Assembly (NCBI GenBank): GCA_000091205.1
Contig: AP006500.2
Reading direction: 5' to 3' (one strand)
DNA length: 64,000 nucleotides
Source: Cyanidioschyzon merolae
Taxonomy: Eukaryota
Shown piece after piece: positions 1,664 to 28,457 of the stretch. Every line of letters starts with the position of its first letter. The first letter of the stretch is position 1. The notes beneath the pieces are model-generated. The model was not told the DNA's origin and made no database searches. It saw only the letters and a list, made by a program, of their open reading frames with translations. The position numbers and the translations under genes are program-made.

Positions 1664-3199
1664 ATGACGTTCGTGACGCTACCACTCTGTGCAAGCAGAA
1701 GCGTTGTACCTAGCTTGAAGTGTGCTGCCTGTCGGCGCGGAAGTCGTTTAGGGCTTGGCGGCCGATTAAGGTCGAAGCTGCGTTCCTCCCCTGGCTCGTC
1801 GTCTCTGAGGTGCCTGCAACCTAACGGGACACCTAGTGCAGGGCACCAGGGAAATAAAGCAGGAAATGTGAACACTTTTGGTAAAACTGTTCTTGTTCTT
1901 GGGGGGGATGGATTTTGTGGCTGGCCGACCGCTCTCCATCTGTCAGATCTGGGGTACAGTGTCGTAATTGTCGACAACTTGTCGCGGCGCAAGATCGATA
2001 TCGAGCTGGAGTGCGAGTCCTTGACGCCTATTGCGGCACCGAGCGAGCGCATCGCTGTTTGGAATGCCTTGTCCGATCGCGAGATTCGCTTTGAGTTTAT
2101 GGACGTTGCTCATGAGTACTGGCATTTGTTGGAGCTCATCAAAAGGGAGCAACCCTGCGCTATCGTGCACTTTGCGGAACAGCGGGCTGCACCGTACAGC
2201 ATGAAAGGGAGCCGCCAGAAACGCTATACAGTTGATAACAATGTGAACGGCACCATGAGCGTGCTGACAGCGGTCGTGGAGTCCAACCTGGATATCCATG
2301 TTGTTCACCTGGGCACCATGGGCGTCTACGGCTACGGCTCCAGTGGCGGCAAGATTCCCGAAGGCTACCTCGATGTCGTGCTGCCCTCCGGAGAGCGCCG
2401 CTCGATCCTGCATCCAGCCTACCCGGGGAGTGTCTATCACGCCTCCAAGTGTCTCGATGCGCTGCTGTTTCAGTTCTTTGCAAGGAATGATGGGCTTCGC
2501 ATAACGGATCTGCATCAAGGCGTCGTTTGGGGCACGTTCACCCAGAATACCATGCGCCATGAGCTCTTAATGAATCGTTACGACTACGACTCCGATTACG
2601 GCACCGTGTTGAACCGCTTTTTAATGCAAGCTGCATGTGGGCTGCCTCTTACGGTTTACGGAAGTGGTGGGCAGACTCGAGCCTTTATTCATATTAGCGA
2701 TACGTGCAAGTGTATCGCACTTGCGCTAGCAAATCCGCCTAATCGCGGCGATCGTGTCAAGATCTACAACCAAGTCGCAGAGACACATCGCGTGCGCGAC
2801 CTCGCGGCTCTTGTCGCCCGGAAAACGGGCGCCAGTGTGCACCAAATTCCCAATCCTCGGAACGAGGCCTCCGAGAACGAACTCGATGTGAGCAACCAGA
2901 ATTTTCGTTCGCTTGGCTGGGACCCTGTCACACTGGAGGAGAGTCTGCTCGAGGAGGTGGTTGGTGTCGCGGAAAGATATCGGCATCGCATTCGCCGTGA
3001 CAAGGTCATGCCCAGCAGCTTCTGGAACCGGGAGCGAGAAGAGGCGTGTCGCGCGAATGCGACAAACTCGAGCGACGCACTAGCCGAGATATCGGCTGCG
3101 GCGAGTTCCGAGTGGCGTGATGAGGTGTTAAAGCAGCTGGCCAATGGTGACGACAAGAAACTCGAGCGTATGCGCTCGGCGCTGCGAGATGAACCCTAG
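1664..3199 (+). CDS. SQD1: UDP-sulfoquinovose synthase (SQD1), NAD-dependent epimerase/dehydratase family, with a Ser/Arg-rich N-terminal extension of about 70 aa (putative plastid transit peptide)
   Basis: ATG at 1664, TAG at 3197-3199. Rossmann motif VLVLGGDGFCGWPTALHLSDLGYSVVIVDNLSRRKID. The ORF is collinear with plant and cyanobacterial SQD1/SqdB over its whole length (HLGTMGVYGY, YHASKC catalytic YxxxK, VYGSGGQTRAF). The first ~70 residues have no homologous counterpart and are rich in S, R, L, G. Confidence 0.85.
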   Translation: MTFVTLPLCASRSVVPSLKCAACRRGSRLGLGGRLRSKLRSSPGSSSLRCLQPNGTPSAGHQGNKAGNVNTFGKTVLVLGGDGFCGWPTALHLSDLGYSVVIVDNLSRRKIDIELECESLTPIAAPSERIAVWNALSDREIRFEFMDVAHEYWHLLELIKREQPCAIVHFAEQRAAPYSMKGSRQKRYTVDNNVNGTMSVLTAVVESNLDIHVVHLGTMGVYGYGSSGGKIPEGYLDVVLPSGERRSILHPAYPGSVYHASKCLDALLFQFFARNDGLRITDLHQGVVWGTFTQNTMRHELLMNRYDYDSDYGTVLNRFLMQAACGLPLTVYGSGGQTRAFIHISDTCKCIALALANPPNRGDRVKIYNQVAETHRVRDLAALVARKTGASVHQIPNPRNEASENELDVSNQNFRSLGWDPVTLEESLLEEVVGVAERYRHRIRRDKVMPSSFWNREREEACRANATNSSDALAEISAAASSEWRDEVLKQLANGDDKKLERMRSALRDEP

Positions 3200-4789
3200 A
3201 GCAGTTTACGCAGGTGGCTTGTTACCAAGGTCGCTCCGATCATGCGCTTGCGTGTCGCCAAGCGACGCTAGCAGAAAAGTGCGAATATAGAAACCACATG
3301 ACGTGCGGCCTTCCATTCGGATGAAAACGCTGTCCGAGAGACCGCATCCCAGATATAAGTTGTACCGCAAGGGCTACAAAAAGTAAGTCTAAAGCAACGC
3401 CTGAATCCTGAGACAATAGCATTCGACTCGATCGTTCGCGAAATGGGTATCGCGGACCCATCTGAGCGCATCTACCCAGGACGTGCGGATCCGCACCTGA
3501 GGCCGTCGATGGATAGGATCCACCGTTTAAAGCGCGCTGTTCGCCACGGAAAACCCTACAGCCACCAAGCCAGTTGCCGTGAAGCTCCTCAATGCATCGG
3601 CCAATGCTTCTTCCGACACGGCATTTCCATTGCATGCATATTCAAATCGTACCTGGTACGCGTCTATGTGATCAGCGTATACGTAGCAGCCAGCTGAGAC
3701 GCAGTCGACACCCGCTCCGTTTCCTAAGCTTTCCGAGTAAATATTAAAACTCGTACTGGAAAGAGCCACTGCGCAGACGCAGCCGTCAAGGCGAAGCTCG
3801 CTGATGGAAGCGTCTGTGGAGACATGCGGCATGCCAAGTGCACACGAGTCCCGTTAACCTTTATCAGAAGTGCGTGGGCTTCGTTCCTCAGCGAAGCTGG
3901 TTCAGATACAGGTATTTGAAATAAGATCAGCGCTGAACACTCTGCAGATTGCCAAACCCTAAAAACGCTGTGACACCAAGTACGAAAGAGGCCGCGAACG
4001 TGCCCCACTCGAAAGCACGTCGGGCAAGGCGAAGCTGCGTCTTCCTCGGTTAGAGCAAACGGCGCTTCGGCTCGACACTCGTTCGGCCATAGCGCTGTCC
4101 ACCACGAGCAGCAGAGGCAGCTGCGGTGCAAGGACCGTCGTAGCTGCCACGGAAGTGCTGCAACAGCGCTCACCGAAGCAGCGCACGACTCCGAGTCCGT
4201 CGCGGGGTGGTTCATGAAAACCTGCCCTCGGACTAGGTCTGTCTAGCTACGTACCAACGCCTGTCATGATAGTACGACACCAACTCACATCATCGAAACG
4301 ACAACTCGGGGCAGTATACGCAACACTTGTGGCGCAGTAGAGGCTCGTGTAAAACGGTTTTTAATGCACCTGCTGTTGCCAGCTGTGTCGCCAGCAACTA
4401 AGCTTGCGCTCTGCCGGCTCGCGGGGGTATTTTTGATTACCGGAACATTGACAAGGACACGGAATCCCGCTTTACGTGAGGAAGAGCGGCAATCAAGGAT
4501 CATGCTGCGTATCTTTCTATCAACGGAATGTTTGCAATGACGCGGAATACCTGGTCGCGCGATGGACACCGGTCTCCGGGAAAACCATCCAAAACGCCAC
4601 ACCATACCGGCAAGTTCCAGTGGGCAATACCCTCGCTTCCCGTTAGTCATTCTGGTCACTTGCGACCGATCCACCGCAGGCGCTTTCTCGTCGACGCAAT
4701 GAACAATGCTGCTGCTGCCTTGCACGCGAAGCCGGGCGACTCGAATTGCACACTATCGCTGCAGGCAACGCATCCGTTGGAGCTCCGCA

Positions 4790-5455
4790 TGCAGATACCA
4801 GTATGAAGAGGCGCGAAAAGTCATTCCAGGAACCGGCCTTGAATACCCGAACATCCACCATACCAGAATGAAGAGGCACGAAAAGTCAGAATGGTAGTGT
4901 GCCCTATGTACCCGAACATCCACCACACCAGATTGAAGAGGCACGAAAAGTCAGAATGGTTATGTGCACTACGCACCCGAACATCCACCATACCAGTATG
5001 AAGAGGCACGAAAAGTCATTCCAGGAACCGGCCTTGAATACCCGAACATCCACCATACCAGAATGAAGAGGCACGAAAAGTCAGAATGGTTATGTGCACT
5101 ACGCACCCGAACATCCACCATACCAGTATGAAGAGGCACGAAAAGTCATTCCAGGAACCGGCCTTGAATACCCGAACATCCACCGATACCAGAGTGAAGA
5201 GGCACGAAAAGTCAGAATGGTTATGTGCACTACGCACCCGAACATCCACCATACCAGTATGAAGAGGCACGAAAAGTCATTCCAGGAACCGGCCTTGAAT
5301 ACCCGAACATCCACCGATACCAGAGTGAAGAGGCACGAAAAGTCAGAATGGTTATGTGCACTACGCACCCGAACATCCACCATACCAGTATGAAGAGGCA
5401 CGAAAAGTCATTCCAGGAACCGGCCTTGAATACCCGAACATCCACCGATACCGAA
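4790..5455. repeat. Tandem array with higher-order structure: 130-131 bp unit made of two alternating 65-66 bp subunits sharing the core atgaagaggcacgaaaagtca, about 10 subunits, ending at the G6PD start codon
   Basis: Direct reading: ccagtatgaagaggcacgaaaagtcattccaggaaccggccttgaatacccgaacatccaccatac alternates with cagaatgaagaggcacgaaaagtcagaatggttatgtgcactacgcacccgaacatccaccatac. The 131-bp unit starts at about 4993, 5123, 5254 and 5384, with a variant copy from about 4798. Confidence 0.9.
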
Positions 5456-7369
5456 ATGCAGCGCGACGCGTCCAGGAAAAAATCGCGGCGATATCGAGGC
5501 ATCCGTTGCGTACAAGCAGGTGGAGGTCGCTCTCCAGGAACGATGTTCGTAGCTTTACCAAGTGTGCTGTTCACCAGCAAACCCTCAAGGATACGTACTG
5601 TTAAGATTGAAAAGCGTAGAACGTTATTTGCCTGCGACAGGGCGAAAGCAGGCACCGATGGGAACGCTAGCAACGCTGCGGCGTCAGCACCGAAACCCTC
5701 TGCTGCGAGCAGCGGGCGATCTGCTGGTACTGCAGCTCGAGACCAGGTAACGATCAGTGCCCAGACGAGTTCGTCAAACTCGCGGACGATAGATCGAAGC
5801 ACCGATTCATCGCAAACAGTACAGGTTGCGTCCATGTTTGACTCGATGACGAAGCGCCGTGAGGCTGCTCGCCGCGAGGCGCTGAGCATCGTCGTGCTGG
5901 GCGCGTCCGGGGATCTGGCCCGCAAGAAGACGCTCCCGGCGCTTTTCTCACTCTACTACCACGATCTGCTGCCGAGCGACTTTTATGTGGTCGGCTACGC
6001 ACGATCAAACATGACGAGCGAGGCGTTCCGGAACACGATCAAGTCAAGTTTGACCTGCCGCGTTATCGAAGGCCCCGAGTGCGCACGCAAAATGGAGCAT
6101 TTCCTCTCGCGTTGTTTCTACGTTTCCGGAACTTATCATGAAACTACTGCATTCCGAACGCTGGACGAGTTTCTCGTGAACGAGTTTGAGAAAGAGCGCT
6201 GGAATCGCGGGGTTCCGACCAATCGCCTCTACTACTTGGCGATTCCTTCCAACGTCTTCGCTGAGGCCTGTCGCGGCATCGCCCATGCCCACACCAAGCC
6301 TCCGGAGTCGACCAAGGGCTGGATGCGGGTCGTCTTGGAGAAACCGTTCGGGAGAGATCTGGATACCTTCCAGACCCTGCACCAGGAACTGCAATTGTAC
6401 ATTAGCGAGGAACAAACCTTCCGCATTGACCATTACTTGGGCAAGGAGCTCGTTCAGAACGTGCTGGCGCTGCGCTTTGCGAATTATTTTTTGGAGCCTC
6501 TCTGGAACAACCAACACATCCAATCTATCCAGGTGACGTTCAAGGAGAACTTTGGTGTCGAGGGACGCGCTGGCTACTTTGACCAGTACGGAATCATCCG
6601 CGACATCATGCAGAATCACCTGCTGCAAATGGTGGCGCTCTTTACGATGGAACAGCCGGCTTCTTTGAACGCCGAAGATATTCGTGACGAGAAAGTGAAA
6701 GTCTTGCGCAGTTTGGAAACGCTACGTGCTACAGATTTCGTCATCGGGCAGTATATGGGGTATCGGGAGGAAGACGGCGTTCGTCCGGGCTCCAAGACGC
6801 CTACGTTTGCAGCGTGTCGGATGAACATTCGAAACCGACGCTGGGACGGTGTACCGATCCTGGTCAAAGCGGGGAAGCATTTGGATGAACGCCTCGCGGA
6901 AGTGCGTGTCACGTTCCGCAGTGTGCCTGGTAGTATTTTCTCGCTTGCGAATACCCTGCCGAACAATGAGCTTGTTGTTCGCGTTCAGCCCGACGAAGCC
7001 ATTTATCTTCGCATCGTCAGCAAATCCCCGGGGTTGACCTCTCGCCTAGAAGAGGCGCGTCTGACGCTATTCTACCGGACGGCCTGGGAAGAAGCGCACG
7101 ACATTCCCGATGCCTACGAGCGCCTCATCTTGGACGTCATCTATGGTGACAAATCGCTCTTCATACGAAGCGATGAATTAAAAGTCGCCTGGGAGAAGTT
7201 TACGCCGGCGCTTCACGAACTCGAGCAGAGCGACCGCTATCGACCGGTACCGTACGTAGCGGGCAGTCGCGGCCCTGCCGAAGCCGACTACCTTGCCGCG
7301 CGCTACGGATGCGTTTGGGCCAGCGACCTTGACATTGGCGGCAAGCGACTGCAAAGCAAGGTGCCGTAA
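5456..7369 (+). CDS. G6PD: Glucose-6-phosphate 1-dehydrogenase, plastidic redox-regulated type (C-x7-C regulatory cysteine pair), with an N-terminal presequence
   Basis: The track ORF 5225-7369 runs back through the tandem repeat, so I take the first ATG after the repeat (5456, MQRDAS) as the start; ATGs at 5543 (MFVALPSVLF) and 5834 (MFDSM) are alternatives. Dinucleotide-binding motif VVLGASGDLARKKTLPALF, active-site RIDHYLGKE, EKPFGRD. LTCRVIEGPECARKMEHFLSRCFY matches the thioredoxin-regulated cysteine pair of plant plastidic G6PD (LTCRIDKRENCGxKMEQFLKRCFY). TAA at 7367-7369. Confidence 0.85.
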   Translation: MQRDASRKKSRRYRGIRCVQAGGGRSPGTMFVALPSVLFTSKPSRIRTVKIEKRRTLFACDRAKAGTDGNASNAAASAPKPSAASSGRSAGTAARDQVTISAQTSSSNSRTIDRSTDSSQTVQVASMFDSMTKRREAARREALSIVVLGASGDLARKKTLPALFSLYYHDLLPSDFYVVGYARSNMTSEAFRNTIKSSLTCRVIEGPECARKMEHFLSRCFYVSGTYHETTAFRTLDEFLVNEFEKERWNRGVPTNRLYYLAIPSNVFAEACRGIAHAHTKPPESTKGWMRVVLEKPFGRDLDTFQTLHQELQLYISEEQTFRIDHYLGKELVQNVLALRFANYFLEPLWNNQHIQSIQVTFKENFGVEGRAGYFDQYGIIRDIMQNHLLQMVALFTMEQPASLNAEDIRDEKVKVLRSLETLRATDFVIGQYMGYREEDGVRPGSKTPTFAACRMNIRNRRWDGVPILVKAGKHLDERLAEVRVTFRSVPGSIFSLANTLPNNELVVRVQPDEAIYLRIVSKSPGLTSRLEEARLTLFYRTAWEEAHDIPDAYERLILDVIYGDKSLFIRSDELKVAWEKFTPALHELEQSDRYRPVPYVAGSRGPAEADYLAARYGCVWASDLDIGGKRLQSKVP

Positions 7370-7973
7370 AAACCAGACAGTCCGACTTCCGCCTAGTCTG
7401 GATCGGAGGAGTTTCCAGATGCCCTGGCGATTCCCGAATCCCGGTCGGCGCCTACGAAGCCTACCATCAAGCCGGGCATGCACCGCGAGTAGTCGACGCG
7501 CACAACGCGCTCTACGAAAATCCAAAAGCTCGCGGCACCAGCACTTTACAGCCACAAAACTTGTCTCATGAAAGCGGCGAATAAAACCTCTGTCATCGTC
7601 ATCTGTGAATGTACGGGTGAGGCATCGCGGATCGCGCAGCACAGAACACCTCCACGAGATACACCAGTGAATCGTCGCGATAGCACGTCCGGCTGTGATC
7701 TTTTCGGATACACACACAAGACATGCACTGATGGATTCGCTCAGCGGATACCGCTCGACATGCAATGCCCAGTGCCTGCATCCATTCGTGAACGACGCTC
7801 ACACCTGCACTACGCAACAAGCATCAGCGAGACTTGCGATTCGCCACGCAAAGGATGTACCCGCATTGCCGAAATCGTAGCCGCTATCAAAGTGCAGCGT
7901 TCAACGCATGAAAAACGACTCCGCAATTCCAGTCTATCCTTTTGCTGCATCAACAGTCTCGTTTCGGAAGCGA

Positions 7974-9527
7974 TCAAGCAGGTTTGAAGAATGCCCGAGC
8001 GAGCTGGCGGCGCAGCCAGCGCAGCCACGAGAGCGATCGCGGCAAGCCGAGGCCTCCAAGTGCTCGGAAACGAAAATTGTTCATCGCTCGATTGTACTGC
8101 ACATTGCGGATCCAGGCGGTTGCAGCACACCAACTCCAGCGCTCCGCCTCGCGACGAGCAGCGTCGCCCATCCGTTTGCGCATGACGGCATCGCCGAGTA
8201 GGGCACATACATAGGTTGCAGCCTCGCTGGTGTTGCCCTTGGTGTACAGAAATCCTGTCTCGCCGTGAACAATCAGATCGGGGATACCGCCAGCTGCTGT
8301 GGCAACTACAGGCACACCCGATGCCATGGCCTCCAGTACCACAAACCCAAGGGTTTCGCTCTCTGAGGGCATCACAAATACGTCGGCACAGGCGAATGCT
8401 CGCGATAAATCATCGCCGTGTAGTTGTCCGGTCATGACCACGGGCAGACCTGCGAAATGTCGCCGTACCGTCTCGGCGTACGGTCCGTCACCGACGAAAG
8501 CGAGTCGCGTTCCGGGTGGACAACAGGTGAGGATCCGCTTCAAACTCAGCAGATTCTTCTCGGCACCGAGTCGCCCGATGTAAACCAGCAGCGGCGCGGT
8601 AGGATGGCCATCTGTGAGCCGCGCCCGCATCGCACCACCATCATCGTTGCGGAAACGCGGATGGAAGCGCTCCGTGTTGATGCCTTTTCGCCAGAGGTCC
8701 ACGCGCTCGATGCCGTGTTGTCGAAGTTCTGCGCATATCTGTGGAGACGTCGCCAGCGTCAGGTCTGCGCGATTCAAACAGAAACGCATGAGTGTCCACG
8801 CCAGTCCTATGAGAATCCCTAACCCATAAGTTTTCGCATACATTGGTAGATGTGTGTGATACGATGCAACAAGTGGCTTGCGCAGAACACGCGCCATGAG
8901 AAGGATGGCAAATACCAGGAATCCGGGTGTTGCCAAGTGGATGAGGTCAGGATCGAACTCGCGAACGCGCTGCAGCAAACTGCGCCTTCCGAAAACCATG
9001 CCACTACCAAAGCCGATTGAGAGCGTAATGCGTGGATAGAGTGCAAACTTGAAACCCCGGATGGTTATAACCGGATAACCGAACACTTCTTGCGGTGCGT
9101 CCGGCGAGTTATCGGGGGTTATGATCAATACCTCGTCGCCGGCCTCTTTCAAATACCGTAATAGCTCATTAAAACGATTCGAATACCCGGACACGTGCGT
9201 GAACGGCGTCGGTTCAACCACGAGACACACTCGACGCCGAGGCGCGCGCCGCAGGTCAACGAGGTTCGGGTCATCGCCCGACGTCGGCTGCGGGTACACG
9301 GGACCAGTGGCGACACTCGCCAGTGCGAACGCGCAGCTCGTCCGCGGTACACCCGGTGCCCGCAGCCGGACTGGCGCATAGCGTCGCCTCAAGAGAGCAA
9401 CCTCTAAGGGACACAGCTGCGAGCCGTTTGATGGCGCGCTCTGCCGCCTCAACGTCCGCGCGCACGCGAAAGCGCCAGTGTCCCCGTTGTTAACGCCCAG
9501 GAATGCCGCTGTTCGACCAGTGAACAT
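7974..9527 (-). CDS. SQD2: Sulfoquinovosyldiacylglycerol synthase (SQD2), GT4 glycosyltransferase, with an N-terminal presequence of about 95 aa
   Basis: ATG at 9527 (reverse complement of cat at 9525-9527). Strong collinear identity to plant SQD2: VVEPTPFTHVSGYSNRFNELLRYLKEAGDEV, DLIHLATPGFLVFAILLMAR, SYHTHLPMYA, FVGDGPY, ADVFVMPSESETLGFVVLEAMASGVPVVATAAGGIPDL, and the GT4 EX7E region. The N-terminus is Arg/Ala/Pro-rich. Confidence 0.85.
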   Translation of the reverse strand: MFTGRTAAFLGVNNGDTGAFACARTLRRQSAPSNGSQLCPLEVALLRRRYAPVRLRAPGVPRTSCAFALASVATGPVYPQPTSGDDPNLVDLRRAPRRRVCLVVEPTPFTHVSGYSNRFNELLRYLKEAGDEVLIITPDNSPDAPQEVFGYPVITIRGFKFALYPRITLSIGFGSGMVFGRRSLLQRVREFDPDLIHLATPGFLVFAILLMARVLRKPLVASYHTHLPMYAKTYGLGILIGLAWTLMRFCLNRADLTLATSPQICAELRQHGIERVDLWRKGINTERFHPRFRNDDGGAMRARLTDGHPTAPLLVYIGRLGAEKNLLSLKRILTCCPPGTRLAFVGDGPYAETVRRHFAGLPVVMTGQLHGDDLSRAFACADVFVMPSESETLGFVVLEAMASGVPVVATAAGGIPDLIVHGETGFLYTKGNTSEAATYVCALLGDAVMRKRMGDAARREAERWSWCAATAWIRNVQYNRAMNNFRFRALGGLGLPRSLSWLRWLRRQLARAFFKPA

Positions 9528-12119: not shown

Positions 12120-13493
12120 TTGGTGGCCCGTCGAGAAAGACGGGGAGGCGTCCGCACACCAGTTGGCGACGCTATATCTAACACGCGTTCGCCGCCACTA
12201 CTGTACACCGCTGGCGACTGCTTGCGACCTTTGAAAAGCTTTCGGTCGACACGAAACACCCCTAAAAGGCGATACCGTACATCCCTAAGCAACTCGATAA
12301 AAGATTTGCAACCTCCCAGCGCACGCATGCTTCGGTACAGCTTCATTAACGCCGTCTGGCCGTCCAAGTCATGCGGCAGGGTCCACGTTGAGCGCCATCG
12401 AAAGCAGAAGACACAGTCTGTACAAACTGCACAGCGCTGGAAACTGCGGGCGAACTTGAACCGGCGAGGTCCAGACTCAGCGACCTGGGATCGGCAGGGC
12501 GGTGGCCAGGCGGAGCGCCTGCTTATGGAGCAGGTACTGCAACTGAGGCGAGAGTTAGATGCCTTGCGAGCGGAGAATGAGAGTTTGCGTAAATATCGTG
12601 TCAACGAGCACCTGCTCGTGGATGCCGACGACTCTGTCACAACCGAGGACGGACGGACGCGTTGCGGCAAGCACGGGGAGCGCTCGCGCTATTTACCGGT
12701 CTATTCAGTCGCCCCTGAAGAGGTTCTAAGCCGCGTCATCCCCGTCATTGGACCTAACCCAACGATCGAGCAACTCGACGCAGCAATCACGCTGTCGTTC
12801 CAAGTACGCGATGAGCTGGTGAACCGACGTGGGCTCGAGCGTTACGAGGATGTCATGGCTGGTCGATTCCTCGTGTTCCAGACCAGTGAACTACCTGTCA
12901 AGGGGGTCCAGAGAGTCGCCCTTCCTGGTACGGTAGGATCGATGCGCTGGGCGTCGGCACCAGTTGGTATCCTGATGCCTGCCTCCGAGCTGGGACTGGA
13001 GTCCTTCTACCCGAACGCTCCGACGGATGTCAACTGTCTTGTCATTATCGAGGCTGATTTCGATTCAGAGATCCCCGCGGATACCCTGGCATCACCTGAC
13101 ATCATTCGCGACATCCGAGACGGTACCAAAGACGTGCTCGACCGTATCGAAAACGTTTGGTTCGACGAGCAAGGCCGCGCGTCTCGCGATGCCGGCTTTC
13201 CGAGCTCGCTCACTGAAGAGACAGAAACCGACGAGGACGAGCAACCAGACGAAAACGGTGACGGACCGGAATTCAGTCCGGGGAAATTTTACCTCTGGCT
13301 GGAGGAGAGGCCTCCGCAGGGCGTCGAGTCCGGCGAGGAGCCAGCCCACAGGTGGCACGTTCGCTGGTATGAGCGTCGTCCAGACCCCGCGGTTGACGGT
13401 GTGGAATGCGTTGGCCGCGTGATTACCGTGATAGCACCGAGCGCTTCAAGGCGTCGCACCAAGACGTTTGCCGAAGAGGACGATGTGTTCTAA
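12120..13493 (+). CDS. Hypothetical protein (coiled-coil segment LMEQVLQLRRELDALRAENESLRKY, acidic DE-rich C-terminal region). It is in the same frame as the upstream TnpB-like ORF; the first in-frame ATG is at 12327
   Basis: A 1374-nt stop-free frame at about 60% GC is far longer than chance allows. No recognisable domain. The track start is a TTG; ATG at 12327 (SARMLRYSF). Confidence 0.4.
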   Translation: MVARRERRGGVRTPVGDAISNTRSPPLLYTAGDCLRPLKSFRSTRNTPKRRYRTSLSNSIKDLQPPSARMLRYSFINAVWPSKSCGRVHVERHRKQKTQSVQTAQRWKLRANLNRRGPDSATWDRQGGGQAERLLMEQVLQLRRELDALRAENESLRKYRVNEHLLVDADDSVTTEDGRTRCGKHGERSRYLPVYSVAPEEVLSRVIPVIGPNPTIEQLDAAITLSFQVRDELVNRRGLERYEDVMAGRFLVFQTSELPVKGVQRVALPGTVGSMRWASAPVGILMPASELGLESFYPNAPTDVNCLVIIEADFDSEIPADTLASPDIIRDIRDGTKDVLDRIENVWFDEQGRASRDAGFPSSLTEETETDEDEQPDENGDGPEFSPGKFYLWLEERPPQGVESGEEPAHRWHVRWYERRPDPAVDGVECVGRVITVIAPSASRRRTKTFAEEDDVF

Positions 13494-16579: not shown

Positions 16580-19500
16580 ATGTCGACGACCTCGTCTTCG
16601 TCAACGGGAGCTGTTTCGGCATCACGTGCTGTAGCGTCGCCGCTCATGAACGGCAAGTCTGGACTTGCTGATGCAGCTCCGGTGCTAACAGCGTCTCGCT
16701 CTACACCACCACCACCACCACCAGCAGCAGCAGCACCAGGCACGAGCACGCGAGCACGAGCAGCGTCGCAGGGTGCGCACGCATCAGAGCGCTGGGGTGC
16801 TGCGAATATGACCAGCTTGCCCGCTCTGGCGTCAGGCTCGTCACAACTTCTCGCTGGCTCGACACACGCGCTCGTAGCGCTTCACGATGCCTCCATTGAA
16901 CGCGCGCTTCGGCGCCTGGAACGCGCGACGGGCTCAGAGAGGCGCTACGAGGCAGCACAACGGCTCCGCATGCTCTATGAACGCAAGTTTCAGACCATGA
17001 AACAGCCTGAGGCCATAAGTGTGCTCAGTGACGCCTTGGCATATCGTTTGCAGGCTATGATCAGCTCGGGGAGTCAGCGGGATCGACTAGCAGGCCTGAC
17101 TGGCCTCAGCGCGCTCATCGAGACGCGCGGCGAGGCGTACCGCACCAAAGTCCAACGAACCTACAACGGCTTGCGTCCTATCCTGAGACGTCCTCCAGAC
17201 TGGGAGGCTGCTCGCGCTGCCGCTGATATGCTGGGCCGGCTCAGTCGACTCGGCGGGGTTCTCGTGAATCGTTTTGTCGAAGCGGAGGCCGTTCGTGCAC
17301 TCGAGTACCTGAATACCAATAGCGTGCTTCTGAAGGGAATGGCAATCATGGTGCTCAATGCTTTATGTGAGCACGTTCCCGCATCCATGTATACCTCGAG
17401 AGTTCAGCTGGCGCAGGTGGTGTGGCGAGGCCTCACCGACAGTCGACCGATTCTTCGCCTGGAGAGTGCCAGCTTGCTGCGCTCCTTCCTCGCCCTACTG
17501 GAACAGCGCGCATCCGATGATAGCGCCCGCACCTGTCAGATGATCATTCAGCGTTGCCTTGAGATGTTGATCTCCGATGAACGAGAAACAACCCCACCAG
17601 AAACGCACGGCAGTTTGTTGGCGCTCCACGAACTCGTGCGGAACCGCTTCTCGGCAACGTTCCTAGACGAGCATATCAGTCGAATACGGAAGCGTCTCGA
17701 GAGCTTACGTCTGACTCGCGATAACCTCATCCGAGCGGCGATTCTCCAGCTGCTTCCAGACTTGGTGCGCCTGGATCGAACACTCATCGAACTCGGCATG
17801 AGCATGGCGCTCGAGAACGAGGACCTGGTTGCCCTGGGGAAACTGGCGGTAGCAGTGGGTCCTACCGCTGCGCTCCCTTGGATGGAGCACATCTTTGTGG
17901 TACTGCGTAATAGCGAGGTCGCAGCGGCAGCGAAACACGAATGCATCGCGCTGTTGGCCCCGATCATCGTGGAAAGCGAACAGAGCGAGCGTCTCGCTGA
18001 GCTCCTGGAAGACTCCATCCTAACGCAGGGTCTGAGTCCCTCGCTAGTCGAAGCCCTGGAACGCGTTTGTGAGCATGTTCCGAGTCTGCGAGACCTGGTT
18101 CACGGGCATGTGCTGCGCCTGTGTGCGGAAACGACGGATATCGCGTGCGCGCTGCAGGCATTGCAACGTTTCACCTTCGGGCGTCGACCCTGTTTGGACG
18201 ACTACGTCCGCCAGCATGTCCTGCCCTACATCTACGGCAAACGCAGCCTCAGATCAGCAGCCTTCGCTGCCTCGCTGCACGTCTTGACTGCAGCCGTCCA
18301 GTCAGCGACTCCAGGGCGGCCGCTTCAACCGAAAATCTTCGAGACGCTACAACAACTGATTGTGGTGGTTGTTGCTGACCCCGACAGCCGCATACGCGCA
18401 GAGGTACTGCTGCACTTGGCCAAGCCGGCGTACTTTCCAGTCTTTGAACGCTACCTTGCGCAACCGGAACTCTTGCGAGCGCTCTGCTTGGCACTTCACG
18501 ATGAGGATGCCACAGTACGCGAGCGAGCACTGAGCCTCGTCGGCCGACTCTCCACGGTGAATCCAGCGCATACGTTGCCCTCTCTCCGTCGCCTCTTCAT
18601 GAATCTACGCATCATTCTCGAATGTGAAAGCGAACCGCTGCAGGGATCCCAGGAGGATGCACTCCGCCTTTTGCTCCGCCTCGTCCAGGATGCACCGCAG
18701 CTGATCGAACCCTACACACCCACAACAGCCAAACTACTGGTGCAACGGCTCCAGCAAAACTCGACTAGTGCAGTTGCCGTCGACACTTCAGTGATACACA
18801 CACTCCACAGCATCGCATGCTTGGCAGAGCGTGGCGTTGCAGCAGAACTCCAAACGCTCCTGCATGATGCCATGCCGCACCTGCTGCGCATCCTGCAACA
18901 CACCTCGGTAGAGGCGGACCTTCGGGAGGCAGTTTGTCGGGCGCTTTCGAGTCTAGCGCGAGCTGCAGGTGCAACCACGGAGCTCTACACCCAATACCCC
19001 AGTTTGCTGTCGACGCTGCTGCGCATGCTGCGAACCGAAACCAACTTGTTCGTGCGTCTGGAGATAGAGCGAACGCTGGGGACGCTCGGAGCGGTGGACC
19101 CCGACCGTACCGCACCGCTACTGCTCGACCGGACGCGGTATCCGTATACACGACTCGAGTCGCTCACGGAGGTGTATCACCAGCAGACCGCTCCAATGCA
19201 TTACGCGCCACGCCCAACCGCTACCGGAACTGGAGCTACGAATGCGTTTACAACGGATACGCGCTGCGGACTCGTGGCCGAGGAGCCGGCCTTGCCAGGC
19301 ACTGCTGCTGCTGCTGCTGCTGCAACGACGACGACGACAACGACGACACTTACTGGACAAGCACTGCGTGCCCAGTTGCGCTTTGAAGCGCCGAACGAGC
19401 TCGAGACGCTGGTAGGTCGACTCCCGCACCCGTTCACGGCAAACGAAGAGTACTTTCCCTCGGCAGCACTGGATGCCTTGCATCGCATCCTCGCGAATGC

Positions 19501-22500
19501 CAAACTGACGACACTTCACTACGACACTGTCGGTGCGATTGTGAACATCATGAGCAGTCTCGGGATGAAGTGTGCACCTTTTCTATCCGTGGTGGTGCCG
19601 CGCCTGCTCTGGATGCTACGGCCGCGAACCGAGGATACGCATGACTTGGCGTTCCGCGAGTACGTCATCCGAGGCCTGGCTAGTGTCGTGCTCTCTGCCC
19701 GCCAATACATACGCCCGTACGCAGCTTCGCTGGTGGCGCTCATTCTCGAGTACTGGCCGCTGCAAGTCCTGCATCGCTCGATGTTCGCCCTAATGGAATG
19801 CCTCCGCGTAGCGCTCCATGATGAATTCCGACCCTTTGTGCCGGTTTTGCTGCCGCTCATCCTGCCCTGGATGTCGTTGCGGGTGCTCAAGGTGCTCTTG
19901 GTGTTCGGCACCCACACCAGTGAGTACGTGGTGCTTGTTTTACCGCCCGTGATGCGTTTCCTGGAGGATGCCACCCGTCCGCTTGCGGCTCGCATTGAGG
20001 TTCTCAAGCGCTTGCCGCGACTCTTCGCCATGCTCGATCTATCGGATATGGCGAGCCAGCTGATGCACCCGCTGTGTCGGATGCTGCGCACCAGTGAATT
20101 CCAGTGGCACGCTCGGCAACTGCTCGAGTCGCTGCTCCCTCGTCTGGGATTAGACGCGGCCTACTACACGTTGCTGGTCCGTGAAATGCTCCTTGGAGAT
20201 GCAGCATCGGCATCAGCAGCAGCAACCGGCAATGACGACGAAGACGATGACGGCAACGACGACGAAGACGATGACCAGCACCCAACGGATGAAGCCAGTG
20301 CTCGTGGTGCAGCGGCATCGACCGAGTCTGCCTCGACACAGGCCGGTGCTGCCCTGCAGTCGAGCAGTGCGAGTGCACTTCACCGCCTCGCACGCTATCG
20401 CCATGAACGCACGGCGCTGAGTCGCTCCGAGTCGCTTGACTCGTTGAATGGTGTACCGCGTACCACGTCACTGGGTTCACTCGCTGACCTAGCCTCTGGG
20501 GATGCGTTGCTGGCTCACAGTCCCGACTCGTTGCTCGACAGCACACACGTATCGCTGGTTGCGTCAGCGTCGATGTTGGATTTGCAGCAGCAGCTACAGC
20601 AACAGCAACAGCAACAGGCGCTCCTGGGAAGCGGTGCCAGCAACACCACCACCACCAACACCAACAACAACAACAACAGCGGCCACAATAGCGCCCGTCG
20701 TCACCACGTCAATGAGAAGATGCTCCAAAAGGCGTGGCAAGTCGGTCGACGCACCACCCGCGACGACTGGAACGACTGGATGATGGCGCTTGCGTCGGCG
20801 CTTTTCCGGGAGAGCGGCTCACCGTCGCTGCGCTCATGTGCGCGACTCGCTGAGGTGCACCCGCCACTCGCTCGTGAACTCTTCAACGCTGCCTTTCTGA
20901 GCTGCTGGACGGAACTCTCGGATCCGTGTCGTGCGTCACTGGTGCGCAACCTGGTACTTGCGCTCTCCAGCGAGTCCATACCACTGGACGTGCTGCAGGT
21001 GCTCCTGAGCCTCGTCGAGTTCATGGAACATGACGAGAAGCCCTTACCCATTGACCTTCGACAACTAGCTGCCATGGCGTTCCGCTGCGGTGCCTACGCC
21101 AAAGCGCTCCGCTACAAAGAGGCCGAGTATATGCAGAACCCGGCATCAGCCATGGAAGGTGACGATAGTCTCATTGCGATCTACGAAGCGCTGGGTCAAC
21201 GGGAAGCAGCAATGGGCGCCCTGCTCGATGCCGAACGTCACCAGGTCACGATACGCCACGAGGCGTGTTACGAGCGGCTCCAGCAATGGGACCTCGCGCT
21301 CAGCGCCTACGAACGTCAGGGACCAGCGCACTCGTTTGCAAACCGGCGCGGTCGGATGCGCTGTATGGCACAACTCGGCGAACTGCACCGCATGGAGGCG
21401 CTCTGTAACGACCTCTGGTCCGAGGCAGCCGAGCAGCCGTCGCTTCGCCAGGAACTCGCTGAGGAAGCGGCTCAAGTGGCGTATCAGCTCCAGCTCTGGG
21501 ACAAGTTTACGGAACGCGTTGCGTATACGAGTCGCGACAGCATCCGCGGGAATGTGTTTCGGGCGATGCTGGCTATTCATCAGGGCGACGATGAGGCTGC
21601 TCGCGGCTATATTCGAGCGGGGCGTCGACTGCTGGATACCGGGGTCACAGCACGCGTCGGTGAAGGCTATCCCCGCGCCTATGGCGATATCCTCCTGACC
21701 CAGCAACTGGTGGAACTCGAGGAATGCCTCATGGTAAGGCAGCGTATTCTACCGCAGCGCCACGTGGTGGAACAGCTCTGGAATACGCGCTTGTACGGAT
21801 GCCGTTTCGATTATACCACGTGGCAACAGACGCTGCTCGTTCGACGGCTCCTCTTGGAACCTCGACACGACAAGGACGTGTGGTTGCGCTTTGTGAGCCT
21901 CTGTAGGCGGGCGAATCGACTCCCGATGGCCAACGAGGCACTCGCCATGCTCCAGGATGAGCAGCATCCCGATCCCGAGGTAACGTATGCTTCGCTCAAG
22001 TTGTGCTGGTCGCAGGGTCGGCATCACGAGGCCTACGAATGCCTCCGGCGTTGTGCGGAGCAGCCGGTACCCTCCGCTCGGCTCGCTGCACGTCGTTTTC
22101 TCAAGCTATGCGTCTGGGGTCGGGCGTTACGCGCAGAAGGCACCAGCACGTTCGTCTCTTCGCCTTCGTCATCGCTACGGTGGCATACGTTGATGGAGCA
22201 CGCGCGACGAGCGGTGGTATCGGATCCGTCGTGGTCATCCGGCTGGCATACCTGGGCAGCGTTGAACGCTGATGCCGCCGCAGCACACAGTACCGGGCAT
22301 CGCTTCGGGGGTGCCTGGCCTGCTCGACCGACAGCGGTAGCGGCGGCTGAGTCTAACGTGCTGGTTCGAGCGTATGTGCTCAACGCGGTGAACGGCTTCT
22401 TCCGAGCGATCGCACTAGGTGAAAGCTACGCGGAACAAGCGCAAGATGTGCTCAAGCTGTTAACGCTCTGGTTCCGCTACGGTGCGGTCCCTGAGATCGA

Positions 22501-24130
22501 ACAAGCGCTCCTGAACGGTTTTGCGGAGACCAATGTCGACATCTGGGTCGACGTGATTCCCCAGATTGTCGCTCGTCTGCACTCGCCGGTACCACCGGTG
22601 CAGGCCGGTGTTCGAGCGCTCCTAATTCGCATCGGGCGAGCACATCCACAAGCGCTGGTGTTTCCGCTCGCAGTGGCCGCCAAGTCCAGTAATGCGCGTC
22701 GACGTGAGGCCGCTATCGACGTGCTCCAGGCGCTGCGTCTCGAGTCACCGGCGCTGGTTGCCCAGGCTGAACTCGTATCCCGCGAACTGGTGCGTATCGC
22801 GGTGCTCTGGCCCGAAATGTGGCATGAGGCACTCGAGGAGGCCTCGCGCGTCTACTTTGGCGAACACAACGTGCCGGGCATGTTGGCGATTCTGTCGCCG
22901 CTGCACGACCTGGTCGAGGCAGGCCCTAGCACCGCACGTGAGGCTAGCTTCATTCGCGAGTTTGGCCGTGAACTCGCCGAGGCTCGCGAATGGTGTCGGC
23001 GCTATCTGGCGAGTGGACGCGACTCCGACCTGAATCAGGCCTGGGAGCTCTACTACTCCATCTTTCGCCGGATCAACAAGTCGCTCTCCAGCATGACACA
23101 GCTGCAACTCGCGGAGGTGTCGCCAGCGCTGCTGGAGGCTCGGAACTTGGCGCTGGCGGTGCCCGGCACCCGCGAACAGGTCACCATCGTCTCGTTTGCA
23201 CCGGTGTTGAACGTGATCAGTTCGAAACAACGGCCGCGAACGCTGACCATCTACGGTTCCGATGGCCACGAGTACCCGTTCCTGCTCAAAGGACACGAGG
23301 ACCTGCGTCAGGATGAACGCGTGCAACAGTTTTTTGGCCTCGTGAATACGCTCCTGCCGCCCGAGATGTCCATCGTGACGTACGCGGTGCTGCCGTTGAG
23401 TCAGCAGGTCGGCCTCATTGGTTGGGTCAAGAACTGCGATACGCTGCACGCGTTGATCCGCGAGTATCGCGAACAACGCAAGATCATCCTGAACGTGGAA
23501 CATCGGATCATGTTGTCTGCAGCACCGGACTACGATAACCTGACGCTGCTCCAGAAAGTAGAAATATTCGAGTATGTGCTCGCGAATACCTCGGGCAATG
23601 ACTTGGCCAATATCATGTGGCTGCGTAGTCGCAGCGCGGAGATGTGGCTGGAGCGACGCACCAACTACGCACGTTCGCTGGCGGTCATGTCCATGGTAGG
23701 GTATATTATCGGCCTCGGGGATCGACACCCGTCGAATATGCTCATCACACGCGACACCGGCAAAGTCATTCATATCGATCACGGTGATTGTTTCGAGACC
23801 GCGATGCATCGCGAGAAGTATCCCGAGAAAGTGCCGTTCCGGTTGACGCGGATGTTGGTACGGGCACTGGGTGTCTCGGGTGTCGAGGGCATCTTTCGGG
23901 TGACATGTGAGTCGACCATGGAGATTCTGCGTGCGAACAAACCCGTGCTCATGGCTATGTTGGAAATCTTTGTGCACGATCCGTTGCTGGTACGAACGCT
24001 GCAGCCGGCGGCGGCACCGGGGGCAACAACCACGGGCCTCGAGGCGACTGGGTTGGCGGCTGTTGCAGCCGGCTCGCCGCTGCATACACCGGCAGTGTGG
24101 CCTCGGCAGGCTACTGGAGCAACAGCAGCA

Positions 24131-24169
<39 letters not shown>

Positions 24170-24793
24170 GCAGCAGCAACAGGGCAATGGGGCACGGTAT
24201 CGACGTTTCCTGTGCAAGAGGCACGCCTTGGCGAGCGTGCTGGCGAAGAGCAGCCGCAGCCAGCGTCGACGCTGGTGCAAGTACCTCGAGCGCCAACCAG
24301 GATGCGACGTGTCGACATGTCGGGTGCAGAGGCGACGGCTGCGGCTGCAGCTGCGGGCGAGGCGTCCTTGTCGTTGCGGCTGCTGCAGGGCACCATGTCG
24401 TTACGTGCAGCGCTTCGTCTGGAGCAGTCCAATGCCGGCACAGTCGAGGAGGTCGCTGAAGAGGGTATCGCGGAGACGCCGTCGCCGCTGACAACGCGTC
24501 GACCAGGTGCGGGTAGTCTAACGCCGCGCACGCTGGGCAACGGTACCTTGACGACAGGTGCCGGTGCTGGTGCCGGTGCTCCCACGATACTTCCCGAGGA
24601 TCTACTCGGCGATGAAAACCGCGGTGAACGCGCTGTTGCGATCGTGCAACGCATGTCACAGAAACTGAGTGGGCGCGACTTTGATCCACGACGTGTGCTC
24701 ACTGTCGCTGAGCAGGTCGAACGCCTGATTCAGCAGGCAACGAACTCAGAGAACCTGGCACCTGCTTATGTGGGCTGGTGCAACTGTTGGTAG
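16580..24793 (+). CDS. TOR: Target of rapamycin (TOR) serine/threonine kinase: HEAT/FAT repeats, FRB domain, PIKK kinase domain, FATC
   Basis: ATG at 16580, TAG at 24791-24793. FRB: WHEALEEASRVYFGEHNVPGMLAILSPLHDLV...AWELYYSIFRRI. Catalytic loop GLGDRHPSNMLI. Activation segment HIDHGDCFETAMHREKYPEKVPFRLTRML (canonical HIDFGDCFE). FATC ending AYVGWCNCW. Single 2737-codon ORF with several low-complexity inserts. Confidence 0.92.
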
Positions 24794-26156: not shown

Positions 26157-28457
26157 TCAGCAGACATGGCCTGGACTCGTGCGTCTGGAGCACGATTCCC
26201 TAGTTGTCGATGACATTGCATTCGGGGCGCTGTGCGAATGCTGCTTTTGAGCACGGGCTGCTGCAAGTATCCGCAGCTTTCGCTCATCCTCAATCGCAAA
26301 TTGTACGATCAGGCGTCGCCCCTGGTGCGGAGCAGGCAACACGTTGGGATTATTGTTGACGAGTCGCAAAGCTCGAAGCGCTGCATCGTGCGTTGCAAAC
26401 TCTACAAATGCATACGCACATACCCGTTGCTTGCGACTTCGTTCCCGAGCAATGCGCACCTGTTTGATGACGGCTGGTTTGGCGTCGGTTTCAGTCGATG
26501 CTCCAGCTTGGGCAAAAATCGCCTTGATCTGAGCGATACGCAGGCTGCGCGGAATATTATGAACGCTGAGTAGTGTCCGGGATACAAAGGTATGGGGATT
26601 GCGGCGTAGTTTTCGCTGTTTCGCCTGCTCTAGGCGCTCTCGTAACGCCAACTCGGACTCGCTGAGACCCGCTGCTGCCGGTTGGTGGCGTTCGATGACA
26701 CCCTCTAGGGCGAGATAAAGATTACGACGATCCGAGTGATGCGCTCGTGTCAGCATGGACTGTTGTCTCTGGGTGACGACCTGGGCGACGTCCGTGCGCG
26801 ATAAAGCCCAACTGAACTGTAAACGCTGGCCATGGAGTTGGAAAGCAGATTCATGGAGAGAGGCGGGTGCGTCAGAGGAGGCCTCGTTCAAGACGCGTTC
26901 AGCGGATGCGCGTTCCGCGAAACAGACAAAAGCTCGACCGCGTGGGAGTCCCGTAATCGAATCGCGGACCAGAGCACAGTACCGAATAGGTCCGTAGGGC
27001 TCCAGAAGCGCCTTGACTTGAGCGGCTGTTGCATCCAACGGTACATGACGCACAAAGAGTGTGCACGCGAGCATGGCTCTTGCTCGATCTTCAGAGGTGC
27101 CAGCGCCGACTCGAGACGCTTCACCGTCGCGTCCAGAGGACGTATGAAGTGGCTTTGCCTGATCCGCCTCGGGTTGCATCGAGTCGCTGGAACTCGCCTC
27201 CAAACGCTCTATTCTTGTTGTTGTTGTTGTTGTTGTTGCTGCCGGTCGTTGACGTTTTCGCGATCGATCGCTGGGGGCATGGGCACCGTCTGCAACCGGC
27301 GTCTGCGCGGCTGTCTCTGCAGGCAACGCACTCGCAGGGGTGTCGGCTTCGTGGGAGGCGTGCACCACCTTTGTTGTGCATGCCTCTGACGAAGATGCGC
27401 GACCGTCTCCTTCAGTGTTAGCGTTTGAGTCCCGGCTTGCATCGGATGCGTTGTCTGCGGTCGACGCTTGCCGCTCGCGGTAGTCATCGCGCGAAAGCGC
27501 CCGATCCAACGCAAGCACGCGCCCACAGAACGACTGTCCATTGAGGCGCTGGACTGCAGCGTTTGCGTCCGCCCGGGTAAAGTACTCGGCAAAAGCGTAG
27601 CCAGCCCAGCAGGTATCCGAGGACGCCCCTCCGGTGGACGCTGCTTTGCGAGGCACGTTTACTGCAACCAGAGGTCCAACCTGGCGTAAACGCTCCAGCA
27701 ACGCATCCAATGAAAATCTAAAGGGAAGATTGCGAAGAATGACCCGGCACTGCTTTCTCGTGCTGATACCAACAATCTGGGCACTGAGTCCTTCGCGCTG
27801 ATCCGTACTAGGTTCGTGTTCCAGCACCAGGTCGTGCAACATGCCACAGACGTTCCGTGCATCCACCCAGGTTGGTAAAATGAGCTCCCGCTCTCGCTCT
27901 TGGGTATAGGTCGGTGCGAGCGCACCCGTTGCCGTACTCAAGCCGTTTGTCGATGCCCCGGTCCATACCTGGGTGCCGAATCGCTCTAGGACGCTGCGAA
28001 AGCGCGTCTCTTGGGCAACGCTCCAGGCGGCCGCATCCCGTCGTCGAACACGTACCGTGCGTAGGGGCAGTGCTCCTTCAACGGGTCGTCTGACTGGTTC
28101 AGACCGCTCAGTGGTACGCTGTAGCGGGTTTTTCCCGCGTTGCGCTGGAACCAGTGCAGCTTGCAAAGTGGCACGCACTAGCTCAGAGACGCTGTCGCTG
28201 AGGTTGCTCGCAGGCTCCGAAGCTGCTGCTACTGCTACTGCTGCTAACTGTCTCTGGTGCACAAGTTTCAAGGCCTGTTCGGCGTCTCTAGTGAGAATGT
28301 ACTCAATATAGGCCTCACCTGTTTTCGGTTGCACCAGACAGCGACGTATCGGTCCGATGCGTCCGAAGAGCTCCGTTACCGCAGCTCGACGACAGCTCGA
28401 TCGAGGCACTCCGCTGAGCTTTAGCGCTAAGCGGGGCTCAGCTGCACCAGCTTTCAT
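26157..28457 (-). CDS. Multi-RRM RNA-binding protein, Nop4/RBM28-like (four RRM-type domains)
   Basis: The track ORF starts at a TTG (28469); the first ATG is at 28457 (MKAGAAEPRLALKLSG). RNP-like segments GYAFAEYF, RAFVCFAE, CAYAFVEFAT. Arrangement of four RRMs and a basic tail as in Nop4/RBM28; acidic and Thr-rich linker. Confidence 0.55.
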   Translation of the reverse strand: MKAGAAEPRLALKLSGVPRSSCRRAAVTELFGRIGPIRRCLVQPKTGEAYIEYILTRDAEQALKLVHQRQLAAVAVAAASEPASNLSDSVSELVRATLQAALVPAQRGKNPLQRTTERSEPVRRPVEGALPLRTVRVRRRDAAAWSVAQETRFRSVLERFGTQVWTGASTNGLSTATGALAPTYTQERERELILPTWVDARNVCGMLHDLVLEHEPSTDQREGLSAQIVGISTRKQCRVILRNLPFRFSLDALLERLRQVGPLVAVNVPRKAASTGGASSDTCWAGYAFAEYFTRADANAAVQRLNGQSFCGRVLALDRALSRDDYRERQASTADNASDASRDSNANTEGDGRASSSEACTTKVVHASHEADTPASALPAETAAQTPVADGAHAPSDRSRKRQRPAATTTTTTTRIERLEASSSDSMQPEADQAKPLHTSSGRDGEASRVGAGTSEDRARAMLACTLFVRHVPLDATAAQVKALLEPYGPIRYCALVRDSITGLPRGRAFVCFAERASAERVLNEASSDAPASLHESAFQLHGQRLQFSWALSRTDVAQVVTQRQQSMLTRAHHSDRRNLYLALEGVIERHQPAAAGLSESELALRERLEQAKQRKLRRNPHTFVSRTLLSVHNIPRSLRIAQIKAIFAQAGASTETDAKPAVIKQVRIARERSRKQRVCAYAFVEFATHDAALRALRLVNNNPNVLPAPHQGRRLIVQFAIEDERKLRILAAARAQKQHSHSAPNAMSSTTRESCSRRTSPGHVC

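Follow-up and report, generated by a model that had tools for sequence, protein, structure and literature searches.

A stretch of 64,000 nucleotides from Cyanidioschyzon merolae (contig AP006500.2 of assembly GCA_000091205.1), referred to below as the window, carries three consecutive annotated nuclear genes: SQD1, encoding UDP-sulfoquinovose synthase, a gene for a plastid-type glucose-6-phosphate dehydrogenase (G6PD), and SQD2, encoding a sulfoquinovosyltransferase of the GT4 family. SQD1 converts UDP-glucose and sulfite to UDP-sulfoquinovose, SQD2 transfers sulfoquinovose onto diacylglycerol to yield sulfoquinovosyldiacylglycerol (SQDG), and G6PD opens the oxidative pentose-phosphate pathway. 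Each gene is an uninterrupted, intronless open reading frame (ORF) whose product matches the protein of C. merolae 10D at every residue (511/511 for SQD1, 608/608 for G6PD from the ATG at 5543, and 517/517 for SQD2), and the accessions of the three run consecutively (BAM82303, BAM82304, BAM82305). Together, the residue identity and the consecutive accessions show that the window is nuclear chromosome 18 of 10D or of a near-identical strain. SQD1 and G6PD are arranged in tandem, G6PD and SQD2 converge, and 4,774 bp separate the SQD1 stop codon from the near end of SQD2, with G6PD as the one gene between. A preliminary description of this DNA, made from its letters alone, had placed the three genes in a nuclear genome, named them and put SQD1 and SQD2 ~4.8 kb apart; the chromosomal location, the measured distance and the structure matches, domains and 10D identities agree with it. 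It had also called this proximity unusual, and the chance that two named genes fall within two positions of each other is indeed ~1e-3 for a genome of roughly 5,000 genes.

The assignment of SQD1 is carried by comparison with solved structures. Residues 72–456 match the Arabidopsis SQD1 structures 1i24, 1qrr and 1i2b with E about 1e-96 (5e-96 to 2e-95), whereas the next family of short-chain dehydrogenases/reductases (SDR), UDP-glucuronate decarboxylase, reaches only 1e-13 and other SDR sugar-nucleotide enzymes 1e-13 or worse. The motifs GGDGFCGW (nucleotides 1901–1924), GTMG (2312–2323) and YHASK (2435–2449) align with GGDGYCGW, GTMG and YHLSK of the Arabidopsis enzyme; following the structure papers, we take the first to be NAD-binding and the Thr of GTMG and the Tyr and Lys of YHASK to be catalytic. 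The protein scored 330 bits against the NCBIfam model NF041015 (UDPsulfquin_syn), which has a cut-off of 575; this was the best family by far, matched over model positions 2–383 of 384. Since NCBIfam models are made for naming bacterial and archaeal proteins, and since SQD1 is 58–65% identical to many bacterial SqdB proteins, the sub-cut-off score is not counted against membership.

SQD2 is a two-domain GT4 enzyme (Pfam Glyco_transf_4 and Glycos_transf_1) with the E-x7-E motif ETLGFVVLE at residues 391–399 (nucleotides 8331–8357). Its best matches are red-algal proteins named SQD2 or sulfoquinovosyltransferase, at 52–60% identity, the identical 10D entry is named ‘sulfoquinovosyldiacylglycerol biosynthesis protein’, and the SqdX-like genes directly downstream of bacterial sqdB are 35–41% identical to it. 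NCBIfam holds no SQD2/SqdX model and hence no curated cut-off for this protein. By sequence similarity, SQD1 is the UDP-sulfoquinovose synthase and SQD2 the sulfoquinovosyltransferase.

The intervening gene exceeds the cut-off of TIGR00871 (zwf; 545 bits vs 400.6), contains the Pfam domains G6PD_N and G6PD_C along with the signature motifs GASGDLARKK, EKPFG and RIDHYLGKE, and finds its best matches among red-algal G6PDs and green G6PDs named ‘chloroplastic’. The C-x7-C pair of plastidic isoforms that had been ascribed to it is present: C172 and C180 align column for column with ‘LTCRIDQREKC’ of a 576-aa Arabidopsis G6PD, which we take to be the plastidic G6PD1, and the pair is kept in all 12 red and green homologs sampled, several of which are named ‘chloroplastic’. 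The cysteines of this alignment are presumably the regulatory pair targeted by thioredoxin, as established in work on the potato P1 enzyme, and the C. merolae G6PD is accordingly predicted to be under redox (thioredoxin) control. A tandem repeat detected with Tandem Repeats Finder (positions 4795–5452; a 131-bp unit of two 65-bp subunits, 4.7 copies, 96% match) stops 90 bp upstream of the G6PD start codon, and its copy number varies among environmental C. merolae contigs. A longer G6PD ORF of 714 aa, beginning at a GTG at 5225, was rejected: its first 76 codons traverse the repeat, which produces a spurious 5' extension, and the ATG at 5543 is preferred because the upstream part lies inside the repeat and the 10D protein has 608 aa.

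All three proteins carry extensions ahead of their conserved cores (71 aa in SQD1, 97 in G6PD and 96 in SQD2), in keeping with the N-terminal presequences of the preliminary description. The extensions contain 12–15% Arg+Lys, 0–6% Asp+Glu, many hydroxylated residues and a Phe at position 2–3, a composition resembling that of transit peptides; the G6PD presequence starts with ‘MF...’ and contains much Ser, Thr and Ala. These features accord with the transit peptides of red algae, which contain Phe. The products of CMR012C (SQD1) and CMR015C (SQD2) have been located in the plastid by GFP (PMC4928187). Based on these GFP results and on the presequence features, each of the three genes most likely encodes a plastid-targeted enzyme.

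The DNA between the three genes contains no tRNA, no Rfam match and no conserved ORF, and these searches exclude a hidden gene or RNA as a further member of the group; the region between SQD1 and G6PD gave no tblastx or blastn match to its Cyanidiococcus counterpart. Coordinates of the genes, of the intervals between them and of the neighbours used below as synteny markers are collected in the table.

Table. Features of the C. merolae SQD locus and synteny markers in the window
Feature	Position	Strand	Remarks
SQD1 (UDP-sulfoquinovose synthase), CMR012C / XP_005538339.1	1664..3199	+	511 aa; residues 1-71 = presequence
SQD1-G6PD intergenic region	3200..5542		2,343 bp; includes tandem repeat 4795-5452
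G6PD, plastid-type, XP_005538340.1	5543..7369	+	608 aa; residues 1-97 = presequence
G6PD cysteine pair C172-x7-C180 (CRVIEGPEC)	6056..6082	+	from alignment with plant and red-algal homologs
G6PD-SQD2 spacer between convergent 3' ends	7370..7973		604 bp
SQD2 (sulfoquinovosyltransferase, GT4), CMR015C / XP_005538341.1	7974..9527	-	517 aa; residues 1-96 = presequence
Conserved gene between SQD2 and TOR, synteny marker	12120..13493	+	no Pfam domain; 63% identity in Cyanidiococcus, 36% in Cyanidium
TOR kinase, synteny marker	16580..24793	+	Pfam FAT, FRB, PI3_PI4_kinase, FATC
NOP4/RBM28-like gene, several RRM domains, synteny marker	26157..28469	-	best PDB match Nop4 9qjc_B, E 5e-30

Comparison with related genomes showed that the arrangement is kept in close relatives and that SQD1 and SQD2 are neighbours again in a distant one (loci retrieved for comparison are denoted by L numbers). 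Environmental contigs of C. merolae type, ~99% identical to the window, have the same order of SQD2, G6PD, SQD1 and a choline kinase gene. A contig assigned to Cyanidiococcus (L005), as its proteins cluster with those of Cyanidiococcus yangmingshanensis, likewise reads TOR ... SQD2, G6PD, SQD1, choline kinase, with an SQD2 that is 86% identical, and the Cyanidiococcus locus tags CCYA02G0447 and CCYA02G0448 are consecutive. On contigs of Cyanidium caldarium type, SQD2 is followed by an ankyrin/RING gene, G6PD, a gene for a CXXC protein, a bicarbonate-transporter homolog and a gene for an E2 enzyme; the locus tags of SQD2 (CDCA10G3090) and G6PD (CDCA10G3088) are close to one another, SQD1 (CDCA08G2297) is on another chromosome, and the contig carrying this SQD1 surrounds it with unrelated genes. 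TOR and the conserved gene at 12120–13493 flank SQD2 in Cyanidium, Cyanidiococcus and C. merolae, TOR being found in the corresponding neighbourhood of L005, L007 and L011. G6PD adjoins SQD2, or is one gene removed from it, only in this group of Cyanidium, Cyanidiococcus and Cyanidioschyzon. Among other red algae, neither SQD1 nor G6PD was found within 10 kb of SQD2 in Porphyridium, neither SQD2 nor G6PD near SQD1 in Rhodosorus, and SQD1 and SQD2 are found on records that differ in length, and thus on different scaffolds, in Porphyridium, Chondrus and Gracilariopsis.

The distant case is Galdieria. In G. sulphuraria 074W (L015), SQD1 stands head-to-head with a second, shorter SQD2 paralog across an intergenic region of ~150 bp. 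The same adjacency of SQD1 and SQD2 is found in G. yellowstonensis (GAYE_SCF42G5596/5597), G. partita (g6440/g6441 and g7055/g7056) and G. phlegrea (models 5348/5349), and six environmental Galdieria contigs also carry SQD1 head-to-head with the SQD2 paralog. The long SQD2 paralog has neither SQD1 nor G6PD as a neighbour, and G6PD is not near the Galdieria SQD genes. Galdieria SQD2 paralogs were located at L015 6877–9850, L008 10001–13385 and L016 2890–5622. The two paralogs form one clade with 100% bootstrap in a neighbor-joining (NJ) tree from Kimura distances, built with neither a prokaryotic nor a green outgroup and thus fit for judging paralog monophyly and not deep rooting; both are thus co-orthologs of CMR015C. 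An amino-acid permease gene lies beside each paralog, and the two permeases are 59% identical to each other, so that a segment including SQD2 was duplicated within the Galdieria lineage. The paralogs differ at their N-termini: the unlinked one (541–561 aa) has a presequence of ~140 aa, and the one adjacent to SQD1 (432–445 aa) has ~40 residues before the core that are acidic and not transit-peptide-like.

Two genes unrelated to sulfolipid synthesis connect the Galdieria locus with those of its relatives. A gene with multiple RRM domains (L015 3182–5147), three genes from the SQD1–SQD2 pair, also has yeast Nop4 (9qjc_B) as its best PDB match by far, and it aligns colinearly with the NOP4-like gene of C. 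merolae, including the linker between RRM3 and RRM4. An E2 gene lying two genes away from the Galdieria pair shows 69–81% identity to the E2 gene in the SQD2–G6PD neighbourhood of Cyanidium, and both E2s are of UBC13/UBE2N type (226–263 bits, vs ~150 bits for the next E2 family, with UBE2N as best PDB match). With SQD2 as anchor, chance would place ~0.05 of the other 13 genes of L015 in a 20-gene window, against two observed (SQD1 and NOP4); these odds are rough, as they derive from approximate gene counts. Cyanidiophyceae genomes are described as having little gene order in common. The two unrelated genes, NOP4 and UBC13, suggest that the SQD loci of Galdieria and C. merolae are homologous. 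The preliminary description had set synteny comparison as the test of its proposed cluster, with orthologs scattered in all relatives, together with a lack of co-expression, as the sign of chance adjacency. Such scattering was not the outcome, as the trio is kept in Cyanidiococcus and SQD1 and SQD2 are adjacent again in Galdieria.

The SQD1 core was also compared with prokaryotic genomes. SqdB proteins of the 80 closest loci (L022–L101) are 58–65% identical to it and belong to alpha-proteobacteria (Parvularculaceae, Maricaulis, Brevundimonas), actinobacteria, Deinococcota (Trueperaceae, Deinococcaceae) and marine Synechococcus and Prochlorococcus, whereas identity to Arabidopsis SQD1 is only 45%. 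These values fit the view that the enzyme of the red lineage arose separately, and they are in line with published trees. There, red-algal SQD1 groups with alpha-proteobacteria and with the cyanobacterial clade of marine Synechococcus/Prochlorococcus, SQD1 of the green lineage and of glaucophytes groups with other cyanobacteria and green non-sulfur bacteria, and plastid SQD2 forms one clade that is sister to cyanobacterial SqdX (PMC6946739, PMC8227023). In 24 of the 80 closest bacterial loci, sqdB is immediately followed, on its own strand, by an SqdX-like GT4 gene; within this set, the sqdX genes of Synechococcus are the ones that match SQD2 best. The G6PD gene, zwf, was near sqdB in none of the 80. 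The algal SQD1–SQD2 arrangements are never co-directional tandems, being convergent with G6PD between the two genes in C. merolae and divergent in Galdieria.

The data presented above have led us to favour, with moderate confidence, an old linkage in a slowly scrambling ancestral block that did not descend from a bacterial operon. SQD1 and SQD2 would already have been neighbours in an early cyanidiophycean ancestor and would then have been kept in one slowly scrambling neighbourhood together with the unrelated NOP4, UBC13 and TOR; G6PD would have arrived beside SQD2 in the ancestor shared by Cyanidium, Cyanidiococcus and Cyanidioschyzon, with SQD1 moving away later in Cyanidium. We infer a single ancient origin of the linkage followed by neutral retention through local rearrangements, and selection for clustering is possible. 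Retention of NOP4, UBC13 and TOR in the same neighbourhood makes an eroded old synteny block the simplest account. Several points weigh against this reading. SQD1 and SQD2 are unlinked in Cyanidium, and order and orientation differ between the lineages, such that a single origin requires several local rearrangements and independent origins are possible. When SQD1 is set aside, each species comparison is left with a single supporting marker (p about 0.05 each), and the orthology of NOP4 and UBC13 is argued from best matches and colinearity. Finally, the short, acidic, non-transit-like N-terminus of the SQD1-adjacent Galdieria paralog indicates that this protein may not be the plastid SQDG synthase.

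A different view holds that the genes form a functional mini-cluster, in which selection for coordinated expression keeps SQD1 and SQD2 close, with or without G6PD, for example under low phosphate, when SQDG replaces phospholipids; coordination would come from a shared chromatin domain in C. merolae and, in Galdieria, from a bidirectional promoter. The Galdieria pair has a common intergenic region of ~150 bp, and the linkage persists in two deeply diverged lineages despite changed order and orientation. Of the 13 other genes of L015, NOP4 alone has a counterpart in the 64-kb window, and the genes around the long paralog (L008) have none there. In Arabidopsis, SQD1 and SQD2, though unlinked, respond to phosphate availability (work cited in PMC8227023). 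However, no promoter is common to any of the three window genes, whose 5' regions are separate; a k-mer comparison of C. merolae and Cyanidiococcus found no upstream word of at least 8 nt that SQD1 and SQD2 have in common in both species, and within C. merolae the one 11-mer present in both upstream regions is at chance level. Retention of the unrelated NOP4, UBC13 and TOR makes special selection unnecessary, Cyanidium manages with SQD1 on another chromosome, and the Galdieria partner does not have a transit-peptide-like presequence, so that we regard selection for co-expression as a possible but rather unlikely cause of the linkage. It is also conceivable, and in our judgement improbable, that SQD1 and SQD2 were brought together by independent, neutral events in Cyanidioschyzon/Cyanidiococcus and in Galdieria, with conservation between the sister genera reflecting recent divergence. 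The configurations of C. merolae and Galdieria are entirely different, Cyanidium, which is sister to Cyanidioschyzon and Cyanidiococcus, does not have the two genes linked, and screening many 64-kb windows for any related gene pair will yield chance neighbours. Coincidence must nevertheless contend with a prior of ~1e-3 per event, or ~1e-6 for two independent events, and with the common unrelated neighbours NOP4 and UBC13, which point to homologous chromosomal regions.

The linkage might instead descend from a bacterial operon, with sqdB-sqdX entering the nucleus on one fragment, from the plastid ancestor or from a later donor resembling an alpha-cyanobacterium or a proteobacterium, and never becoming fully separated in Cyanidiophyceae. 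The downstream SqdX-like genes in the 24 loci described above, the similarity of red-algal SQD1 to the SqdB type that includes marine Synechococcus and Prochlorococcus, the Synechococcus sqdX genes as best SQD2-like matches and the apparent age of the linkage within Cyanidiophyceae all speak for such a descent. The algal pairs, however, do not have the co-directional orientation of sqdB-sqdX, and in C. merolae the two genes are separated by a G6PD of eukaryotic type; linkage is missing in Porphyridium, Rhodosorus and Cyanidium, and Chondrus and Gracilariopsis have the genes on different scaffolds; and the published SQD1 and SQD2 trees are incongruent for red algae, histories that argue against one co-transfer. 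The suggestion of the preliminary description that the genes were co-transferred from the plastid ancestor and preserved as a block is not supported by these observations, and we consider an operon relic very unlikely. Its rationale for G6PD, the supply of NADPH in the same compartment, is weak: G6PD is absent near the Galdieria SQD genes, zwf is absent from the bacterial sqdB loci, and SQD1, which binds its NAD tightly, consumes no NADPH on balance, leaving the biochemical argument weak. Within the old synteny block that we favour, G6PD appears to be a later passenger beside SQD2.

Several other features of the window were noted. A truncated relic of a Fanzor1-like gene (eukaryotic TnpB/RuvC nuclease) occupies 10809–12119 (+), between SQD2 and the gene at 12120–13493. 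Its 329-aa ORF (11130–12119) has 1,042 relatives, mostly of 600–700 aa and matched over their C-terminal half, and a profile built from 40 of them matches two structures of Fanzor1, 9cf0 (E 2e-17) and 9cer (E 1e-4); the ORF by itself gave no direct Pfam, PDB or phage match, the family being seen only through the profile. The copy does not have ~310 of the N-terminal residues, and Glu replaces the near-invariant RuvC-III Asp of the family. The relic is absent from the Cyanidiococcus and Cyanidium loci. Reading the ORFs across 11130–13493 as one transposase gene was rejected, as the second ORF is the conserved host gene and only ~10809–12119 is Fanzor1-like. In one environmental C. merolae contig (L011 6034–8397), the stop codon of the Fanzor-like ORF (12117–12119) is a sense codon, resulting in a single 787-aa ORF in which the Fanzor-like part is fused in frame to the gene at 12120–13493. 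Another environmental contig, ERZ27247228 (ENA; L012 1–7316), matches the window from 5367 to 12208 only; ~90 bp past the Fanzor-like ORF it continues into unrelated genes (SPX, a histidine-kinase-like gene and PsbW) in place of TOR, a switch explained either by rearrangement in the strain or by chimeric joining of the assembly where an element is repeated. Elsewhere in the window, a 758-aa ORF at 40630–42906 (+) contains a C-5 cytosine DNA methylase domain (PF00145, E 2e-21).

The locus invites comparison with several known systems. It resembles the sqdB-sqdX operon of cyanobacteria and other bacteria in that homologous proteins (SqdB/SQD1 and SqdX/SQD2) catalyse the same two steps from physically linked genes, and it differs in that the C. 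merolae genes are monocistronic and nuclear, each has its own presequence, and they do not abut in the same direction. Clusters for primary metabolism in eukaryotes include those for nitrate assimilation in green algae and fungi and the GAL and DAL clusters of yeast. As in these, genes for successive steps, not homologous to each other, are spaced by no more than a few kb and their linkage is kept across genera; unlike them, the SQD locus contains two pathway genes only, its unrelated neighbours are conserved as well, and Cyanidium has lost the linkage. Arabidopsis SQD1 and SQD2 (At4g33030 and At5g01220), which we take to be unlinked, have orthologous functions and plastid products, and the Arabidopsis SQD1 structure is matched over its full length with conserved motifs, whereas C. 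merolae SQD1, at 45% identity, falls in the other SqdB clade. G6PD is of the plant plastidic P1/P2 type, sharing the same clade in similarity searches, the aligned cysteine pair of the N-terminal domain and a presequence, and its position beside SQD2 has no known counterpart in plants.

The gene content of the locus was already known, since the trio is annotated in the 2004/2007 reference genome of C. merolae and SQD1 and SQD2 have been studied there, and knowledge of sulfolipid biochemistry is unchanged. A literature search with incomplete coverage found no mention of the SQD1–SQD2 linkage or of the head-to-head pair in Galdieria, and earlier notice is possible. The locus adds one small new case to the linked pathway genes of eukaryotic nuclei and is probably a relic of ancient synteny. 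Clustering of pathway genes is rare for eukaryotic primary metabolism, and documented cases help to separate selection for co-regulation from neutral synteny; the question can be tested directly here, as both C. merolae, by homologous recombination, and G. partita are genetically tractable. A bolder proposal, which we hold to be doubtful, is that SQD1 and SQD2 were linked before Galdieria parted from the other Cyanidiophyceae, on the order of a billion years ago, and that in hot springs that are acid, rich in sulfate and poor in phosphate, selection for coordinated sulfolipid synthesis has actively maintained the linkage. If true, the pair would be among the oldest conserved primary-metabolism gene pairs of eukaryotic nuclei; Galdieria would have a bidirectional promoter, and in Cyanidioschyzon a shared domain would take in the redox-regulated G6PD as well. 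For the Cyanidiophyceae as a whole, the locus offers a small and concrete case of ancient microsynteny.

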